A stretch of 63,771 nt of DNA, filler included, from Stramenopiles sp. TOSAG23-2 (lineage: Eukaryota), in NCBI GenBank assembly GCA_900128395.1. It is 24 parts of 24 records of this genome, joined end to end, with 100 filler letters (N's around TTAATTAATTAA, not from the genome) between each part and the next. Parts side by side here need not be neighbours in the genome. Positions count along the whole stretch, not along the records: positions 50,661 to 53,204 come from LT651663.1; 23 more parts are not named here. One strand, written 5' to 3'. A program made the translations under genes and the position numbers. The number at the start of each line of letters is the position of its first letter. Positions within the stretch are counted from its first letter, which is position 1. Below the pieces are notes generated by a model, which saw only the letters and a program-made list of their open reading frames with translations, did not search any database and was not told where the DNA came from. Below, piece by piece: positions 2,755-58,490 of this stretch.

Positions 2755-3065
2755 CCTTTCGTCTTTTTTAATATGAACACAGCAGGGGCCTTTTCGTCTT
2801 TTTCGTTATGAACACAGCAGGGGCTTTTCGTCTTTTTCGTTATGAACACAGCAGGGGCTTTTCGTCTTTTTCGTTATGAACACAGCAGGGGCTTTTCGTC
2901 TTTTTCGTTATGAACACAGCAGGGGCTTTTCGTCTTTTTCGTTATGAACACAGCAGGGGCTAAATCCGTTTCTGTTATATGAACACAGCAGGGGCTAAAT
3001 CCGTTTCCTTTTATATCAACATAGCAGGGGCCTTTTCGTCCTGTCGCATATGAACATAGCAGGGC
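2755..3065. repeat. 34-35 bp minisatellite, about 9 copies
   Basis: Unit ATGAACACAGCAGGGGCTTTTCGTCTTTTTCGTT at 2773, 2808, 2842, 2876, 2910, 2944, 2979, then degenerating. Confidence 0.92.
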
Positions 3066-11177: not shown

Positions 11178-11463
11178 ACTAGATCGCCGCATTAATAGAT
11201 GTATCAGATAATATATACATTACTAAGAAACATTTGTAAAATAGAAACACAAACAATTTAGTAATTATATATATATAAACATGGCATTGGTTGGTATACC
11301 GATACGGTTATTGCACGAAGACTAGATCGCCGCATTAATAGATGTATCAGATAATATATACATTACTAAGAAACATTTGTAAAATAGAAACACAAACAAT
11401 TTAGTAATTATATATATATAAACATGGCATTGGTTGGTATACCGATACGGTTATTGCACGAAG
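11178..11463. repeat. 143-bp tandem duplication covering the SmD3 upstream region and first 13 codons
   Basis: 11178-11320 equals 11321-11463; ATGs at 11281 and 11424. Confidence 0.95.
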
Positions 11464-21983: not shown

Positions 21984-23611
21984 TCATATATTATTATCAT
22001 TATCACTAGTAGTATCATAACTACCTTTTTCTTCTTCTTGCATTACAGTAATCAATTCAATGCATTCACCTTCTCCATCGATGTCATTATTATTATCATT
22101 ATTGTCGTCTATATTATTATTATTATTTTGTATTTTATTTTTTTTCAAGTAATTTAAATTTAAATTAGGATTCAATTTTCTTGTATGTTCATAATCAAAA
22201 TTCCATATTAATTTACTTTTACATAATGGACAACAGCAGTGATCTATATAATTTGATTCCATTAAAAACCAATTTTCGATACATAAAGAACAATATGTAT
22301 GATCACATAATAAAGTTCGAACATATTTACCAGCTAATGATTCTAAACATATAGAACAACTTCCTTTGTTTTTCATTTGCAACTTATCTTTTTCATGATT
22401 CATATAATATTTCGGCATATTTTCGTCAATCATTGCCAAATCTATTTTCAATAATTCTATTTTTGGTTGTCTCCTCCTTCCACTCCGATTACTACTTTGT
22501 CGATAATTATATTGTTCATATTTACAAAAATAAATAATTCGAATATACTTACTTGTCAATAATTTATTTAAAGTATGCCATGATAGCATAACATTTAATC
22601 CAACAATAAAACTACCAACAAAAACTAAATCATTTCTATTTTGTGTTTTACAAGTCGATGTTTCATTAATACTTTCACTAATTCCATAAAGTAAACAAAT
22701 TGTGCTCATGATATGAATGAATGTTAAACTAAAATTTGTTATCGGAATATTATTACTGTTATTGTTATTGTTTCTTCTTCCATTCTTAATAACTAATTTC
22801 ATTACTAAATACGAATTCAATATTAAAAATAGTATAAAAGTAACAAAAGCAAGTATTGGTGGTGCACATTCTACAAATAAGATCACGATTATCAATGATA
22901 TTATAAAGATACATACAATTAAGAATTTGTAACATTTCATAAATTGTTGCAATTCACAAAATCTAGAATATCTTCTTATTGATTCTTCTTGTTGCTGTTG
23001 TCGCTGCTGCAGCTGTTGTTCAGTGATCACAACATTACTATTATCATTGTCATTATCAGATACATCTTGGTTTTTATACCATATAAAACCTTGTAATATG
23101 CTATTTGTAAATACATTAACTATAATCGACGGGACAGTGAAATGATTAATCAATATATAAGATTGTTTTTCTAGAGAAAGGATGTAAAAATTTTTTGACT
23201 TTTCCACATTTTTCCCGTATAAAAAAACAAAATTATCGCTAGAGATAATCAAACCAACAAATATAAATGCAATAATTGGCAAATGAATCACAGTTGAAAT
23301 TAAATTGACGTCTTTACTTTTTTGACAAAATTTCCTAGNNNNNNNNNNNNNNNNNNNNNNNNNNNNNNNNNNNNNNNNNNNNNNNNNNNNNNNNNNNNNN
23401 NNNNTTTCCTACAATTAATAACTTGATATGTTAACAACATAAGAATTACAGTTAAGAACGCGAAAAAGATTGATAAATTAAAAAAAACTAGTAATTCACA
23501 CTCATTATACACATTACCACGACAGTTTGAACCTTCAAAACAAGTTTGCATCTCAGGTGGTGGGCATCCTTCCATCCCACCAGTTAATAGTCTACTGCTA
23601 ACATTATACAT
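21984..23611 (-). CDS. Multi-pass membrane RING-finger E3 ubiquitin ligase
   Basis: Several TM segments and CSICLESL...CDHTYCSLCIENW...CPLCK; the 23339-23404 gap looks like a false gap because TAGGAAA overlaps both sides (VINCRK|FCQKSKD). Confidence 0.8.
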
Positions 23612-46158: not shown

Positions 46159-46838
46159 TTTAGTCAGTATTATTTTTGACTTTTGTAAAAGAAGATCAAT
46201 GAAAGAATAAAAAATGATATAAAATTTATTCTTTCTTTCTTTCTCCTGAGTATATATATATAATATATATGATATTTATATGTTTTGTGTTCTAATTAAG
46301 CTAATGTGTCATGTAACGATTAAATTTGTCACAGTTTGCCTTAGTATTTTTAATGCCTGCTATTTCAGTATTAATAAAATAACATTGCACAGTATGGGGG
46401 AAATCGCATAAGCGAAGAATTGAAAAGTATATCGAGAATTGAAGTAATATGATAAAAAAGTAACATATTAATATATGTGTTTTTCTCTTACTCATATGTT
46501 ATATAAAATTCTTTTACTCCNNNNNNNNNNNNNNNNNNNNNNNNNNNNNNNNNNNNNNNNNNNNNNNNNNNNNNNNNNNNNNNNNNNNNNNNNNNTCTCT
46601 TACTCATATGTTATATAAAATTCTTTTACTCCCGTTTACAATTTTATAATATATACTATACTGTGTATAATAGCACGATAATGCACATATTATTATCATA
46701 TATAGACGACTAATAAATTATGTTATACTAACACCAAAGATATATTATTTTTTAATACTCGTATCATCACACTAAATCTTATTGATTATATTTCACAAAA
46801 CATAAAAAATTTAATATTTTTTTTTTTATGCATACTTT

Positions 46839-50560: not shown

Positions 50561-51793
50561 NNNNNNNNNNNNNNNNNNNNNNNNNNNNNNNNNNNNNNNN
50601 NNNNTTAATTAATTAANNNNNNNNNNNNNNNNNNNNNNNNNNNNNNNNNNNNNNNNNNNNTACAAATATTCGATGTTAGTTTGGATCAATTACAAATCAG
50701 CATATATAGAAGAGAAAAAAGATTATTGATTGATCACCACGATTTACATTTATTTACTTACAGACTAAAATCATATTGATCAAATCAATATATCATATCA
50801 AGCCAACAAAGTACATTATAATACAAACAATACAATGATAATAAACAAATATCACATAATACAAATATTCGATGTTAGTTTGGATCAATTATAAATCAGC
50901 ATATAGAAAAAATTATTGATTGATCAACATCAATTTACATTTATTTACTTACACCCTAAATCATATTGATCAAATCAATAACATATCAAGCCAACCAAGT
51001 ACATAAAATGACAAATAATACAATGATTAAACAAATCACATAATACAAACATTCGATGTTAGTTTGGATCAATTACAAATCAGCATATAGAAGAGGAGAT
51101 TATTAAATGATTGATCAACATCATTTACATTTATTTACTTACAGACTAAATTCATATTGATCAAATCAATAACATATCAAGCCAACGAAGTACATTATAA
51201 TACAAACAATACAATGATTAAACAAATCACATAATACAAATATTCGATGTTAGTTTGGATCAATTACAAATCATCATATAGAAGAGAAAGAAGATTATTG
51301 ATTGATTGATCAACATCATTTACATTTATTTACTTACTTTCTAAATCATATTGATCAAATCAATAACATATCAAGCCAACCAAGTATATTATAATACAAA
51401 TAATACAATGATTAAACAAATCACATAATACAAACATTCGATGTTAGTTTGGATCAATTACAAATCAGCATATAGAAGAGCAATACAATGATTAAACAAA
51501 TCACATAGTACAAATATTCGATGTTAGTTTGGATCAATTACAAATAAGCATATAGAAAAGATTATTGATTGATCACCACGATTTACATTTATTTACTTAC
51601 AGACTAAATTCATATTGATCAAATCAATAACATATCAAGCCAACGAAGTACATTATAATACAAACAATACAATGATTAAACAAATCACATAATACAAACA
51701 TTCGATGTTAGTTTGGATCAATTACAAATCAGCATATATAGAAGAGAAAGAAGATTATTGATTGATCAACATCATTTACATTTATTTACTTAC

Positions 51794-51862
51794 AGCCGCA
51801 TTACCTGATACGACACTGTTACTTAAACTCAGTGTACCACCGTCTATAAAAAATCCTCCACC
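51794..51862 (-). CDS. 69-nt phase-0 exon encoding one Pmp-like / right-handed beta-helix repeat (GGGFFIDGGTLSLSNSVVSGNAA)
   Basis: Preceded by CTAAC..AAAAG, followed by GTAAGT; exactly 23 codons with no stop; GGGxxI..GGTLxLxNSxVSGNxA pattern. Confidence 0.85.
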
Positions 51863-52301
51863 CTTTTAATACGTATATATAATGTTAGTTTGGATCAATT
51901 ACAAATCAGCATATAGAAGAGCGAAGTACATTATAATACAAACAATACAATGATTAAACAAATCACATAGTACAAATATTCGATGTTAGTTTGGATCAAT
52001 TACAAATCACCATATAGAAGAGATTATTGATTGATCACCACGATTTACATTTATTTACTTACACCCTAAATCATATTGATCAAATCAATAACATATCAAG
52101 CCAACGAAGTACATTATAATACAAACAATACAATGATGAACAAATATCACATAATACAAATATTCGATGTTAGTTTGGATCAATTACAAATCACCATATA
52201 GAAGAGAAGATTATTGATTAATCAACACGATTTACAATTATTTACTTACATCCTAAATCATATTGATCAAATCAATAACATATCAAGCCAACGAAGTACA
52301 T

Positions 52302-52540
52302 AAAATACGTTGTATAAACCAATTGTACGAGAAACGCGTAAATTTAATCCATTGAGAATACCAAAAAAATTAGAACGAGCATTGCCATATAAAACTAAAC
52401 CAAAAGTCAATAAAAAGAAACGTAAAAACAATAAAACGAGCGAATTGTCTAAAGCAACTGCCGTTATTATGGAGCCAAAAGAACGTAAAATGTATACCAT
52501 GATGCAACAATTACGTACCGTTCGTAATGTGAAGACAAAA
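52302..52540 (+). pseudogene. BMS1: Captured fragment of the BMS1 ribosome-biogenesis GTPase C-terminus inside an array intron
   Basis: NTLYKPIVRETRKFNPLRIPKKLERALPYKTKPK...AVIMEPKERK; no ATG start and both ends fused to repeat sequence. Confidence 0.85.
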
Positions 52541-54011
52541 TAATACAAATATTCGATGTTAGTTTGGATCAATTACAAATCACCATATAGAAGAGAAGAA
52601 TATTGATTTATCAACATCATTTCCATTTATTTACTTACATACTAAATCATATTGATCAAATCAATAACATACCAAGCCAACGAAGTACATTATAATACAA
52701 ACAATACAATGATTATAAACAAATCACATAATACAAACATTCGATGTTAGTTTGGATCAATTACAAATCAGCATATAGAAAAGATTATTGATTGATCACC
52801 ACGATTTACATTTATTTACTTACACCCTAAATCATATTGATCAAATCAATAACACATCAAGCCAACGAATCACATTATAATACAAACAATACAATGATGA
52901 ACAAATATCACATAATACAAATATTCGATGTTAGTTTGGATCAATTACAAATCACCATATAGAAGAGAAGATTATTGATTGATCACCACGATTTACGTTT
53001 ATTTACTTACACCCTAAATCATATTGATCAAATCAATAACATTATCAAGAATAATACAAATATTCGATGTTAGTTTGGATCAATTACAAATCACCATATA
53101 GAAAAGATTATTGATTGATCACCACGATTTACATTTATTTACTTACACCCTAAATCATATTGATCAAATCAATAACATATCAAGCCAACGAAGTACATAA
53201 AATANNNNNNNNNNNNNNNNNNNNNNNNNNNNNNNNNNNNNNNNNNNNTTAATTAATTAANNNNNNNNNNNNNNNNNNNNNNNNNNNNNNNNNNNNNNNN
53301 NNNNCACTGCTATTATTATTATTACTATTATTATTATTATTACTATCACTATTATTATCTGGACGACTATTAGAAGAAGACTTTGGTACGTCAATGGTTA
53401 ACGATGCCATAATCAATGTTTATTATTGTATGTATAATATATATAAATAATATATATATATATTCTTGTATATCTGGTAAGACGAAAGAAGAATTAAATA
53501 AAAAATCAGTTGGTTAAAACTGAATGTATCGGATGACTTGTTCTTTCTATTCATATATATGTGTATATATAGAGAGAAATCTGTTTATTTAATATATTTA
53601 TTATTTTTTGTATTTGTTAGTAAAAATGCAATGATAATACGTGTTATTTATTGATGATCAGGTTGTTTTTATGTTTTCCTCATCATTTTAATTTTTCGTC
53701 ACAAACAAGGTGGAATTATAAGTACAGACGTTAGAATACCATATCTATGACATTAAATTCCAATTTGAATTTAATTCCAAAAACACCTTAAAAATAAAAA
53801 TCTTTAAAAATCACCCACACCAAAAATAAAAATATATATCCTTTTATCAAATGAAATAAAGAGAGGCACACACAGAGGTATATATTTTCATTTTCAAACA
53901 ACGTGTTACATTATATTCAATATAAGAAGTAACACAGATCTCCAAAAGAAAATATATTTAAAAGCGTTGATTAAGATACATTCATAAATACAAGTCTGTA
54001 TAAGAACGATA

Positions 54012-55532
54012 ATGATGATTAATACAATACGACAAAAGATAAAAAGTGCCATGTCTTTCCAACTTGGATATAATAACAAATTATTGCCATCAGCAATAAT
54101 TTCAAAGAAATCAATATCAACAACTACTGTAGCATGTAGTAATAATAATAATAAGTCATCTTCTCATATTAAAACAACATTTGAAAAGAATGTAATGGCG
54201 ACATATGGAAGATTTGATATTTGTTTAGATCATGGGAATGGTACATATGTACATGATGTAAAAGGCAAGAAGTATTTAGATATAGGTGGTGGTATAGCTG
54301 TAAATGCATTAGGACATGCTCATCCAGAAATTGTAAAAACAATCCATGAACAAGCATCAAAACTTATACATTGTTCCAATTTATATTATACTGAATCACA
54401 AGGCAATTTAGCAAATCGTTTGATTGAATATTTAGGTGAAGATGGCAAAGTTTTTTTCAGTAATAGTGGCGCAGAAGCAAATGAAGGTTTATACAAATTA
54501 GCACGTGCATATGGCCAAGAGTCAAAACGACATAAAATTATTACTGCAACGAATTCATTTCATGGCCGGACGTTAGGTGGAATTGCAGCTACAGGACAAG
54601 ATAAAATAAAAAAAGGATTTTATCCAATGATCGATGGATTTGACCACGTGCCATTTAATGATTTAAATGCAATGGAAAATACTATTGATGATCAAACTTC
54701 TGCTATTTTAATTGAAGGGATACAAGGGGAAGGTGGTGTAACACCAGCAACACCAGAATATCTATTAGGTTTACGAAAATTATGTGATGAAAAAAATATT
54801 TTATTAATGTTTGATAGTGTTCAATGTGGTCATTTTCGATCTGGTAGATTTCAATCTTATCAACGAATTTTAGAAGATATTGAAAATACATTTCAACCAG
54901 ATGCTATTTCCATGGCTAAATCATTAGGTGGCGGAATACCAATTGGAGCATTTTGGGTAAAAGAGAAACATAGTTCATTACTTAGTGCTGGTATGCATGG
55001 TACAACATATGGTGGTAATCCATTATCATGTTCCATTGCTTTGACAATCTTAGATGTGTAAGTATGAATCTGAGTTTTAAAAAAGTATCTTTTTTATTTT
55101 CTTTTAAGCTTTCTCTTTTTCACTTCATGTCTATATACATGTATATCTAACATTTTGTTTTTATTTTTTTTCATATGCAGTATTGAAAAGGAAAATTTAG
55201 AAGAAAATGTACGTAATGTTGGAGATTTTTTTCTAAAAGAAATTGGAGAGAATTTACAAAAAATATATCCAGAAGTAATTGATGGTATTCAAGGTATGGG
55301 TTGTATGTTGGGTATACGTTTAAAACAAGCAAATGAAATCCCACGTTTTTCAAGACATTCAGAAACAACCTCTGCAATTCAGTTTGTCAATGCATTACAT
55401 GATGTAGGTGTATTAACTGTACCAGCTGGTGAAAATATTGTTCGTTTATTACCACCATTGAATATACAAAAAAATGAAATGAATGAAGCATTAGATCATA
55501 TTGAAACCGTTTGCAAAATTAGTATGGTATAG
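54012..55532 (+). CDS. argD: Acetylornithine aminotransferase with transit peptide; intron 55058-55180
   Basis: YLDIGGGIAVNALGHAHP, FFSNSGAEANE, SFHGRTLG, QGEGG, MAKSLGGGIPIGA, HGTTYGGNPL; a GTAAGT..CTAAC..TGCAG intron joins LDV|IEKENL in frame. Confidence 0.93.
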
Positions 55533-56689: not shown

Positions 56690-58490
56690 ATGCGGACAAA
56701 GAAAAGAAGCAGTAATATACAATTAAGAAGTCCAAAAAGTCCAAAAACGTCACCGCCGAAGTCGTATGGTAAGAACAGAAGTAATAAAAAGCATCGATTT
56801 TTAACTCATGTGTTTAAACCCGTGCAAGTTTCTGGTTCAACTAATATGAACATATGTCAAAGTGTAGATTTTTATACATATACGTCATCACCAAAAATAC
56901 ACATTGGTAAACAGAAATATTTAAAAGAACGTAAGTACAATCACAAACAATTATCCATTATCCATGTCCTCTTTTTTTCCTAGGTGATATTTTTCTAGAA
57001 TATAGAAAGGACTAACAGGAAACATCAATTGCTATTTACAACATAGGCGCTCCATGGTTTTCTAATTTAATTGATTCTAATTTTAAAGAACCAGAGACGT
57101 GGGAAGTAGTGGATAAAAACAGTCTAGGTGAACTAACAGACGAAGACTGGTTAGTAAAGGAAAAAAATGCATCCGTACGTTTATGCAATAAATTAAAGAA
57201 CATAATACAGAAAAATAACGAGATTCAAGAATCTACTGTAAAAATTCAAAGTTTACAACGAGCTAGAAAGGCTCGCCGTGTGTATCAAGAGACAAAAGAA
57301 TCTACAGATGCAGCAATTAAAATACAAGCTATACAACGCGGGCGTAAAGCAAGAGCAAAGCAAATACAAGATAAAAATATAGTATTAGAAAGGCCAAAAA
57401 AAATTGCATTACGCCAAGCAAGAAAAACGGGTTCAATACGTTCTGTAAAAGAAGAAATAAATATGATAAACGAGAAAGAAACGAAAAAGAAAGAGTACGC
57501 AGCAACCAAACTACAAGCGTTACATCGTGGCAGAGATGCACGCAAAAATGTCAATCTGAAGAAGAAGAATACACTAACCGTAAATACTGATGAAATTAAT
57601 AGGACTAAAAATATACGACAAGCAAATCAACGCGGTGCACGAGTTTTAACCCCACATGAAATTCGTATGAAAAAAATTGCTGCAGTGGAAAAACGTATAA
57701 ATGCTGACTACGAAGAATTAGGTAGAGAAAAACTAGATGAGAAGGACAGCAACAAGGCACTGTTGGAGGAAAAAGACCAGCACGATGCTGCAATCAAGCT
57801 TCAAGCTTTACAGCGTGGAAGGGATGCACGGAAAAGCATATCAGAAAAACAAAAACAAAGAGAAAAGGAAAATGCTGGTATACGTGAAATAATATCAATT
57901 AGGGATACAATGAATGATGATGATAATAATAATACTAATAATGGTGATAAAAATATCAAGGAAGAACAGCCAAAGATAACACCAGAATGGACTTTGAGTC
58001 CAAACACTATGGAAGACAAAATCGAAGGATTATTTCAATTTATTCAAAGGGTGGATGATGATAATTATGATTCTTATATAGGCAGTTCTTTGCTCTCTAT
58101 TCCACGTAAACAACTATTAGAATTGGTAGAGAAACACAGAAATAGAATTGATAATTATTTGAAACAAGATGAATTTTTAAAAACCTTTATATTAGGTCCA
58201 AATTTAAGTTTGTCATTAACAAGTAAATATAAATCCATGCAAATCAATGTAACACCAAAGATGATAAATGAACTATTAACCGCACAACAAGTTCTTGCAC
58301 CGAGACTTGAAATAACAGGGGAACATAGCAATCACTTCGCAATTCATGCAATTGACCATGAGGAACCAAGTAACGAGAGCAATGTTCATGATAAAAAGCG
58401 TAAGAAACATAAAAAAGATAAGAAGAAGAAGAAGCATAAAAAAGAGAAAAAGGAAAAAAAAAGTAAAAAAGATAAAAAAAAAAAGAAAAG
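56690..58490 (+). CDS. IQ-motif calmodulin-binding protein; 5' exon structure unresolved, 3' truncated
   Basis: KIQSLQRARKAR, KIQAIQRGRKAR, KLQALHRGRDAR, KLQALQRGRDAR; probable first exon 56690-~56930. Confidence 0.75.

Follow-up and report, generated by a model that had tools for sequence, protein, structure and literature searches.

Strand-specific avoidance of AG in a tandem array of putative spliceosomal-intron units from the marine eukaryote Stramenopiles sp. TOSAG23-2

The genome assembly of Stramenopiles sp. TOSAG23-2 (GenBank GCA_900128395.1), analyzed here as one joined stretch of 63,771 nt (the window), includes a contig (LT651663.1) made up of tandem, intron-like units on the minus strand. 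Each unit opens with a GTAAGT donor, carries a CTAAC branch box and closes with an AG acceptor 3 nt ahead of the next donor. The units avoid the dinucleotide AG on the array strand, the 3-nt spacers between them are hypervariable, and a relative of the array (locus L003, from a separate metagenome assembly) lies in sense orientation within an intact gene. Taken together, these features may describe complete spliceosomal-intron units, arranged in tandem in the part of a surface-protein gene that encodes repeat rungs, in this AT-rich marine eukaryote, an account to which, as a whole, we give an even chance. Within that account, we infer that CTAAC serves as the branch point, that the units are excised one by one and that the spacers are translated.

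The standard unit is 185–195 nt long and has a constant order of parts. GTAAGT and a 9-nt leader are followed by the left arm of an inverted repeat, a variable pyrimidine-rich stretch and a near-invariant 22-nt branch block (TGTAATTGATCCAAACTAACAT), and the 3′ part is a U/G-rich segment of ~100 nt, the last ~26 nt of which form the right arm, ending in TTTAG, 3 nt and the next GTAAGT. The donor stands at the start of 12/12 units in the window and 6/6 units of L003, CTAAC is present in every unit, and the acceptor is the first AG downstream of it, all of which agrees with the signals of U2-type spliceosomal introns. Spacing at the junctions is exactly 3 nt in 11/11 cases in the window and in 16/16 when L003 is included, with no stop codon among the spacers (0/16); those of the window (n = 11) read GGT (5), TCT (3), TAT, GAT and AAA. 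Tandem Repeats Finder (TRF) places the periods of the array at 187–191 and 385 nt. Five units depart from the standard: one is short, two have a duplicated branch block, one is cut by the contig end and one bears an insert. A search of the window for the branch-box block gave 14 matches in the array contig, 13 of them exact, and neither this search nor that for the donor (12 matches) found anything in the window's other ~61 kb.

A preliminary description of this stretch had reported that the branch box before a 3-nt exon lies about 105 nt upstream of an acceptor reached through sequence devoid of AG. Its coordinates are exact on the minus strand: in the model unit (Table 1) the branch A is 104 nt from the G of the acceptor AG, and the intervening 101-nt zone has no AG, though six GA, where 4.23 AG are expected from mononucleotide shuffles (P(0) = 0.0053). 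The absence is wider than the zone, with the 70 nt between GTAAGT and CTAAC also AG-free (P = 0.019) and the 176-nt unit body containing none against 7.54 expected (P = 0.0001). Across the entire contig there are 34 AG, of which 12 belong to GTAAGT, 12 to acceptors, six to the 69-nt exon (in contrast to the introns), three to a foreign insert and one to a junction, where the spacer AAA meets the G of GTAAGT. The array strand carries these 34 AG versus 107 CT, 124 GA and 153 TC and, since the latter three are abundant on the same strand, the avoidance is specific to AG and to that strand.

The units of the window are copies of one another, so that the absence of AG within the window is close to one observation repeated. 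The number of AG-creating substitutions across copies, a check proposed in the preliminary description, was counted in an alignment of 11 full-length units (seven from the window and four from L003; partial, duplicated and insert-bearing units were excluded). Among 68 unique substitution events relative to the consensus, none created a real AG against 8.68 expected from the observed spectrum (Poisson P ~2e-4), the one nominally AG-creating event being blocked by a neighbouring change in the same unit. The expectation amounted to 4.56 events in the zone and 2.62 upstream, with 0 observed, while creation of the control dinucleotides followed expectation (GA, 8 vs 7.7; CT, 6 vs 7.1; TC, 6 vs 5.4). 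The count favours selection against new AG. Neutral satellite DNA was considered as a candidate and rejected; the tandem structure fits it, but the strand-specific avoidance and the missing AG-creating changes contradict neutrality. The view that such a unit is not a neutral satellite, already put forward in the preliminary description, gains support from these missing events and from the sense-strand position of the array within the intact gene of L003, and the sequence evidence thus supports an array shaped by splicing.

The proposed explanation runs as follows. With a strong donor, a strong branch box and a single reachable AG, each unit could be removed singly by a spliceosome that defines short introns, and one-by-one removal would keep the frame and leave each unit represented by a single codon, placed in an inter-rung loop. 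The spliceosome would take the first AG downstream of CTAAC; a new AG would displace the acceptor, disrupt the frame and be purged by selection, which would account for the avoidance of AG. The 3-nt spacing would make every outcome in-frame, and for this reason such arrays could persist in coding sequence. The array may have arisen by unequal recombination between homologous introns flanking 69-nt rung exons or 3-nt exons, as growth of this kind fits the partial units at both ends of the L003 array, the duplication of branch blocks and the mixture of 69-nt and 3-nt exons.

The gene context comes largely from the relative. A scan of metagenome contigs with an 18-nt core returned 10 loci, nine of which were chance matches and one of which was L003, the first 4,579 nt of a 14-kb contig, with seven exact core matches. 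On its minus strand, an ATG-started open reading frame (ORF) of 406 codons runs to ...ELVIENMILTNGE, ending in phase 0 at a GTAAGT; the upstream exon end reads ...LTNGE. The array that follows has six units, the first with a unique 5′ part and the last with three branch blocks and a unique 188-nt tail, and its spacers are GGT, TTT, GAT, GAT and TAT. The last AG is followed immediately by an open frame of 439 codons, which starts GGGLYVGSN... and has IPT/TIG domains. The array is taken as intronic on the grounds that it lies on the sense strand between two phase-0 open exons, both homologous to P0002, an intron-less protein from ENA. The upstream flank aligns up to residue 169 of P0002 and the downstream flank from residue 362 (56% identity over 385 aa); the P0002 ORF fills most of its 4.5-kb contig, and its repeat rungs take up ~190 residues at the place where 52 residues and the array stand in L003. 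For the window contig the sole source of gene context is the 69-nt exon, whose product (GGGFFIDGGTLSLSNSVVSGNAA) shows up to 58% identity to five rung repeats of P0001, a protein from EukProt (tblastn, best E 0.004 against a window-only database). With this exon matching P0001 rungs and the L003 flanks matching P0002, the array is placed, in sense orientation, in the rung region of a surface-protein family.

L003 also extends the census of AG. It has 14 in all, six in donors, six in acceptors and two in the unique 5′ part, the latter lying upstream of the branch block of the first unit, with an earlier CTAAC immediately before one of them. The last unit lacks AG across 395 nt (17.4 expected; 0/20000 shuffles), including its unique 188-nt tail (P = 0.0001). 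When proteins were searched by length, the longer relatives were P0001 and P0002, none was found near in length, and the shorter were P0154 and P0155, neither of which is spliced across the junction; the downstream exon of L003 as a protein query matched multi-IPT/TIG proteins alone, and these carry no information on the junction. P0154 (jgi, 180 aa) is the read-through ORF of a third copy of the intron tail, with 72 open codons followed by a downstream exon start GGGLEV.... It shows that AG-poor, stop-poor intron tails are called as ORFs in metagenomes.

The conservation profile along the unit sets the spacer apart. Unique substitution events number 0 in the six donor sites, three in the 22 sites of the branch block and one in the five sites of the acceptor TTTAG, compared with 0.37 per site over the whole unit and four in the three spacer sites. 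Pairwise diversity of the spacer is 0.43 per site in the window and 0.39 in L003 against 0.060 for the unit body at both loci, a difference of ~7-fold in both arrays, and of 182 sliding 3-nt windows only two, overlapping the spacer, were top-ranked in both. The variation is confined to positions 1 and 2, with position 3 being T in 15/16 spacers. A metagenome contig from DNA run X4 carries a further spacer variant, at 52064. Candidate explanations for the hypervariability are diversifying selection on a translated codon and a mutational process specific to the junction.

The strongest form of the proposal, in which the units are excised singly, the translated spacers form runs of at least five one-codon exons, these exons build a variable rung loop and a hairpin enforces their inclusion, is tentative, and we judge its joint truth possible but clearly less than an even bet on the sequence evidence. 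Under such a reading, donors and acceptors would be interchangeable and skipping would make the loop between beta-helix rungs vary in length and sequence, the seven-fold spacer diversity at codon positions 1 and 2 would reflect diversifying selection on that loop, and the terminal hairpin would pair each donor with its own acceptor. The main rival has the array removed as one long intron, or all of its internal sites skipped, such that the spacers never enter the mRNA and the units are a tolerated intronic satellite. Direct joining in L003 gives ...LTNGE followed by GGGLYV..., a plausible rung boundary; as any combination of sites is in frame, inclusion is not forced, and the RNA runs (see below) do not contradict removal as one intron. 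Splice sites that lie 3 nt apart should moreover be sterically hard to recognize at the same time, which counts in its favour. Internal AGs should, however, be neutral in a single long intron, yet none of the 68 events creates one against 8.7 expected. Perfect GTAAGT and ACTAAC are kept in every internal unit, the spacer is hypervariable in both arrays, unlike an inert intronic position, and an intron of 1.4 kb would be atypical next to candidate native introns of 98–165 nt. We regard removal as one intron as unlikely, although it merits more credence than the alternatives considered below.

Each unit is predicted to fold. In the sense RNA, a terminal stem of 22–30 pairs, formed by an inverted repeat of ~25 bp, was found by folding in 10/11 units; it begins 15 nt inside the donor end and closes on the A of the acceptor. 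The model unit folds at −39.2 kcal/mol (z −2.69 vs dinucleotide shuffles); the z-score is −2.22 for a unit of L003 and −0.88 when the window unit is folded as antisense (two units tested). Intron self-complementarity reportedly enforces exon inclusion, and the arms could be a splicing 'zipper' that matches every donor to the acceptor of its unit or could equally be transposon-type inverted repeats. A C-box-like GTGATGA occurs in the left arms of L003 (e.g., 2434-2440), with one-mismatch versions in the left arms of the window. The idea that the units host small nucleolar RNAs (snoRNAs) or microRNAs was rejected, with the best Rfam scores at 16–21 bits against gathering thresholds of 37–101 (E >= 0.57) and a D box (CTGA) that is not conserved.

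The inverted arms bear on another alternative, that the unit is a mobile introner resembling a miniature inverted-repeat transposable element (MITE), with splice signals of its own, the array a pile-up of insertions and the spacer a target-site remnant. Terminal arms of ~25 bp in 10/11 units, the small size and the AT-richness are all as expected of such an element, and excerpts of a study of introners (PMC9860276) describe families with terminal inverted repeats and target-site duplications, one of which adds bases to the transcript. Unitigs matching the array also occur at high summed word depth (100–330) in two metagenomes, a depth that sums over organisms and is not copy number. No copy was seen outside the gene family, whether in the window's other ~61 kb or in the metagenome, genome-contig and viral scans (two genome-contig scans for the unit gave 0 matches, and three viral loci were one unrelated phage gene), and the lone metagenome relative (1/10 loci) is in the same gene family. 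The head-to-tail order, partial units and duplicated branch blocks fit unequal recombination better than repeated insertion. Further, the donor and leader (15 nt) are outside the arms, the TA...TA at the arm ends belongs to the inverted repeat itself, and no direct repeat flanks a unit. With these points set against it, a pile-up of mobile introners appears improbable.

The preliminary description had further proposed two acceptor designs, a distant branch point with an AG-exclusion zone before micro-exons and a compact acceptor before the long exon. The compact acceptor before the 69-nt exon is present as described, with 22 nt from the branch A of its CTAAC to the G of the AG, and 11/11 long-zone acceptors of the window precede 3-nt spacers while the sole compact one precedes the 69-nt exon. 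A CTAAAT ~21–25 nt before the final acceptor of L003 could be the branch used there, that is, a compact branch before a long exon. For comparison with ordinary introns, the rest of the window was filtered for ORFs that continue across the junction, with 50 codons to either side and a closed frame when unspliced, and for an acceptor at the first AG after CTAAC. This gave six candidate introns of 98–165 nt with GTAAGT or GTATGT donors, four of them credible (Table 1). One of the four has its CTAAC 70 nt before the AG, with no AG in between (P = 0.010), and an ordinary long exon next; it lies between two ORFs of what may be an acyltransferase-like gene, its junction restoring a putative acyltransferase motif. 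A distant CTAAC with an AG-free stretch is, on the strength of this candidate, within the normal repertoire of the organism, although the 104 nt of the array unit are extreme relative to the candidate native introns.

The claim that the unit is tuned for micro-exons is not supported, given this candidate intron, and a rule of distant branches for micro-exons is at odds with the last unit of L003, AG-free over 395 nt before a long exon. The other half of the proposal, a compact design for long exons, would have to be built on a single compact acceptor of the unit family in the window. The long branch distance is explained by the right arm of the ~25-bp inverted repeat, which sits between CTAAC and AG. 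As adaptations to exon size, the two designs are thus doubtful at best; distant and compact geometry would appear to reflect the history of the units rather than a demonstrated adaptation.

Sequencing runs were compared with the whole array contig at 88% likeness (DNA runs X3 and X4; RNA runs X15 and X17). Parts of the contig occur in marine metagenomes, with DNA unitigs of 50–170 nt (86 from X3 and 56 from X4) covering units, the 69-nt exon and the exon/donor boundary. The boundary between exon and GTAAGT is crossed by unitigs of two metagenomes, and one X3 unitig spans 51788-51879. Variants of the 69-nt exon are present in the unitigs (a loose end at 51839 and substitutions across 51799-51844) at a depth similar to that of the intron units, which suggests many paralogous repeats of exon plus intron.

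These data also bear on the possibility that the window copy is a dead pseudo-array, or an assembly or amplification chimera, that is unexpressed and owes its regularities to functional relatives. The contig is 2.5 kb long, ends in repeats and is one of ~24 unplaced pieces; no DNA run has more than 0.32 of the sampled words; and an antisense fragment of the ribosome-biogenesis gene BMS1 interrupts one unit. The fragment matches residues 1149–1222 of human BMS1 (chain 7mq8_SI, E 3.5e-12) and the depth over the insert is at most 0.73 in X3 and 0 in X4, though the uncovered part proves nothing. A sequence variant shared between the contig start (53204) and the bases just past the BMS1 insert hints at a ~900-nt higher-order repeat, or at an assembly or amplification chimera. 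Against a dead copy, L003 has the same architecture in an intact gene, independent unitigs cover the units, the exon and the exon/donor boundary, and, apart from the insert, no unit has gained an AG or lost GTAAGT or CTAAC, that is, there is no sign of decay. We give a dead or chimeric copy a small chance.

Several observations weigh against the array as a set of singly spliced units, and they are gathered here. The upstream part of the unit is AG-free as well, beyond what a first-AG rule requires, and the 68 events behind the substitution count are not fully independent, coming from related copies at two loci only. Weaker branch-like TTGAT motifs lie up to ~35 nt from the acceptor, and CTAAC need not be the branch used. 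The foreign insert adds three AG to the zone of its unit, which should derail splicing there, and the window copy may be defective or misassembled. For the hairpin, compensatory changes were found in 0/15 predicted zone pairs, the consensus fold is weak (−4.4 kcal/mol) and there is little variation in the right arm. Neither the fixed 3-nt spacing nor the lack of stop codons is significant alone, and neither was used as evidence for translation, given that the spacing is inherited with each duplication and that a spacer ending in T (15/16) cannot be a stop. Protein searches for a transcript-derived product spanning the junction of L003 found none. Among the RNA data, six runs had matching words, each with at most 0.10 of the sampled words; X17 gave no match, and X15 gave six A-rich pieces of 33–35 nt (five under 90% likeness and one at 90–95%) that include no joints, are taken as spurious and bear neither way on expression.

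The coordinates of the array, of its relative and of the candidate native introns are collected in Table 1. The window is a chain of ~24 small contigs, each of ~2.55 kb and in order of decreasing size, which meet at N44-TTAATTAATTAA-N44 linkers. Because it is a set of joined contigs, genes beyond the linkers are not true neighbours of the array and features spanning linkers are artefacts of concatenation. Both ends of the array contig are inside repeat units. GC content of the window is 24–36% per 2-kb bin. Two more runs of N lie inside window pieces (23339-23404 and 46521-46595), and other contigs hold a perfect 143-nt tandem duplication (11178-11463; 2.0 copies, 100% match) and tandem repeats of 34 to 35 nt (2757-3031; six copies, 97%).

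Table 1. Coordinates of the array, its units and associated features. Positions are those of the window, except for the two L003 rows, which are on the L003 contig.
Feature	Position	Strand	Details
Array contig	50661-53204 (2544 nt)	minus	Leading partial unit, 12 units starting GTAAGTAAATAA and one 69-nt exon
Short unit, 136 nt	53011-53146	minus	Without ~50 nt of the zone; spacer GGT
Full unit	52824-53010	minus	Spacer GGT
Full unit	52639-52823	minus	Spacer TAT
Insert-bearing unit	52250-52638	minus	~240 nt of foreign DNA in place of ~40 nt mid-zone; spacer GAT
BMS1 (ribosome biogenesis) fragment, 79 open codons	52304-52540	plus	Antisense to the array, within unit 52638-52250
Model unit, 187 nt	52063-52249	minus	GTAAGT 52249-52244; spacer GGT 52065-52063
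Model unit, arms (folding)	left ~52234-52209; right ~52092-52067	minus	
Model unit, acceptor region	CTAAC 52173-52169; AG-free zone 52168-52068; AG 52067-52066	minus	Next GTAAGT 52062-52057
Composite 200-nt intron before the 69-nt exon	51863-52062	minus	Begins with the 5′ part of the standard unit; another branch-block copy follows
Composite intron, 3′ end	CTAAC 51888-51884; AG 51864-51863	minus	19-nt linker between CTAAC and AG
69-nt exon, phase 0	51794-51862	minus	Encodes GGGFFIDGGTLSLSNSVVSGNAA, one rung of the repeat protein; GTAAGT follows
Full unit	51601-51793	minus	Spacer TCT
Unit with internal branch-block duplication	51338-51600	minus	Two CTAAC; spacer AAA
Full unit	51143-51337	minus	Spacer TCT
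Full unit	50953-51142	minus	Spacer GGT
Full unit	50762-50952	minus	Spacer TCT
Unit cut by contig end	50661-50761	minus	
L003 spacers	2458-2460, 2274-2276, 2090-2092, 1906-1908, 1722-1724	minus	
L003 last unit	1318-1721	minus	
Candidate native intron	55058-55180		Branch A to AG 30 nt
Candidate native intron	56931-57046		Branch A to AG 31 nt
Candidate native intron	39700-39603		Branch A to AG 36 nt
Candidate native intron	59835-59671	minus	GTATGT...CTAAC...TTAG; branch A to AG 70 nt

Were the units to be spliced singly, the array would be a test case for the minimum size of an exon and for the pairing of identical neighbouring splice sites, as well as for how intron sequence evolves under a rule by which the first AG past the branch box is taken. 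It would also mean that introns can multiply in place, by recombination between homologous introns and without breaking the gene, in addition to the transposon route of introners. Even on a minimal reading, a single dinucleotide is clearly selected against, in a strand-specific manner, throughout a repeat family; the sequence by itself reveals this, and AG avoidance could help those who annotate protist genomes to tell spliced arrays from inert satellites.

Among known systems, recursive-splicing ratchet points have an acceptor followed almost immediately by a GTAAGT donor within a long intervening sequence and define a zero-length exon. A recursive splice site was rejected for the array, in which 3 nt intervene at 16/16 junctions and the spacer regenerates no donor. 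The published systems that follow are compared as they are described in excerpts of the cited sources. An established feature in humans, AG-exclusion zones with distant branch points (Gooding et al. 2006, PMC1431707) share with the array a far-upstream branch motif (104 nt here), the lack of AG before the acceptor and selection against AG-creating changes; unlike them, the zone of the array belongs to a repeated unit, the exclusion of AG extends over that unit as a whole and the branch is a candidate read from sequence. The stem of the unit is like the yeast intron zippers and structures between branch and 3′ splice site (PMC12311795, PMC2536676, PMC3239191) in that intron pairing could bring splice signals together, but it has no covariation and its arms could be transposon-type repeats. 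The host genes of SNORD115/116 snoRNAs (PMC11608373) likewise have many consecutive homologous introns with short exons between them; there, each intron holds a snoRNA and the host is non-coding, whereas in the array no Rfam family comes near threshold and the host is protein-coding.

A 3-nt exon is not impossible, since exons of this size with full flanking splice sites can be included in animals (MAP4K5, PMC8632122; Drosophila hth, PMC7392893; RPS24, PMC12686416). As described there, these micro-exons are isolated between unrelated long introns, whereas the array has five to six consecutive candidate exons between homologous introns, an arrangement for which no report was found in the open-access literature searched (most subscription journals lie outside it). 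The micro-exon genes of Schistosoma (PMC10526429) resemble the host gene in encoding secreted or surface proteins, with many very short exons; these exons measure 3–81 bp and the introns up to 5 kb, compared with spacers that are all 3 nt and short introns that are copies of one another.

Introners (Gozashti et al. 2022, PMC9860276) come close to the units in being near-identical introns of marine protists with their own splice signals and inverted terminal arms, and some families add codons. They are described as dispersed in unrelated genes, whereas the array units stand head-to-tail at one position of one gene family, with neither target-site duplication nor dispersal seen in the scans above. 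Intron gain by tandem duplication, as in the potato gene for RNA-dependent RNA polymerase (RdRp; PMC4974935), is similar in that the duplicated segment is bounded by splice signals and the frame is kept. The potato case is a single duplication, whereas the arrays described here reach from six to 12 or more copies, each leaving a remainder of 3 nt.

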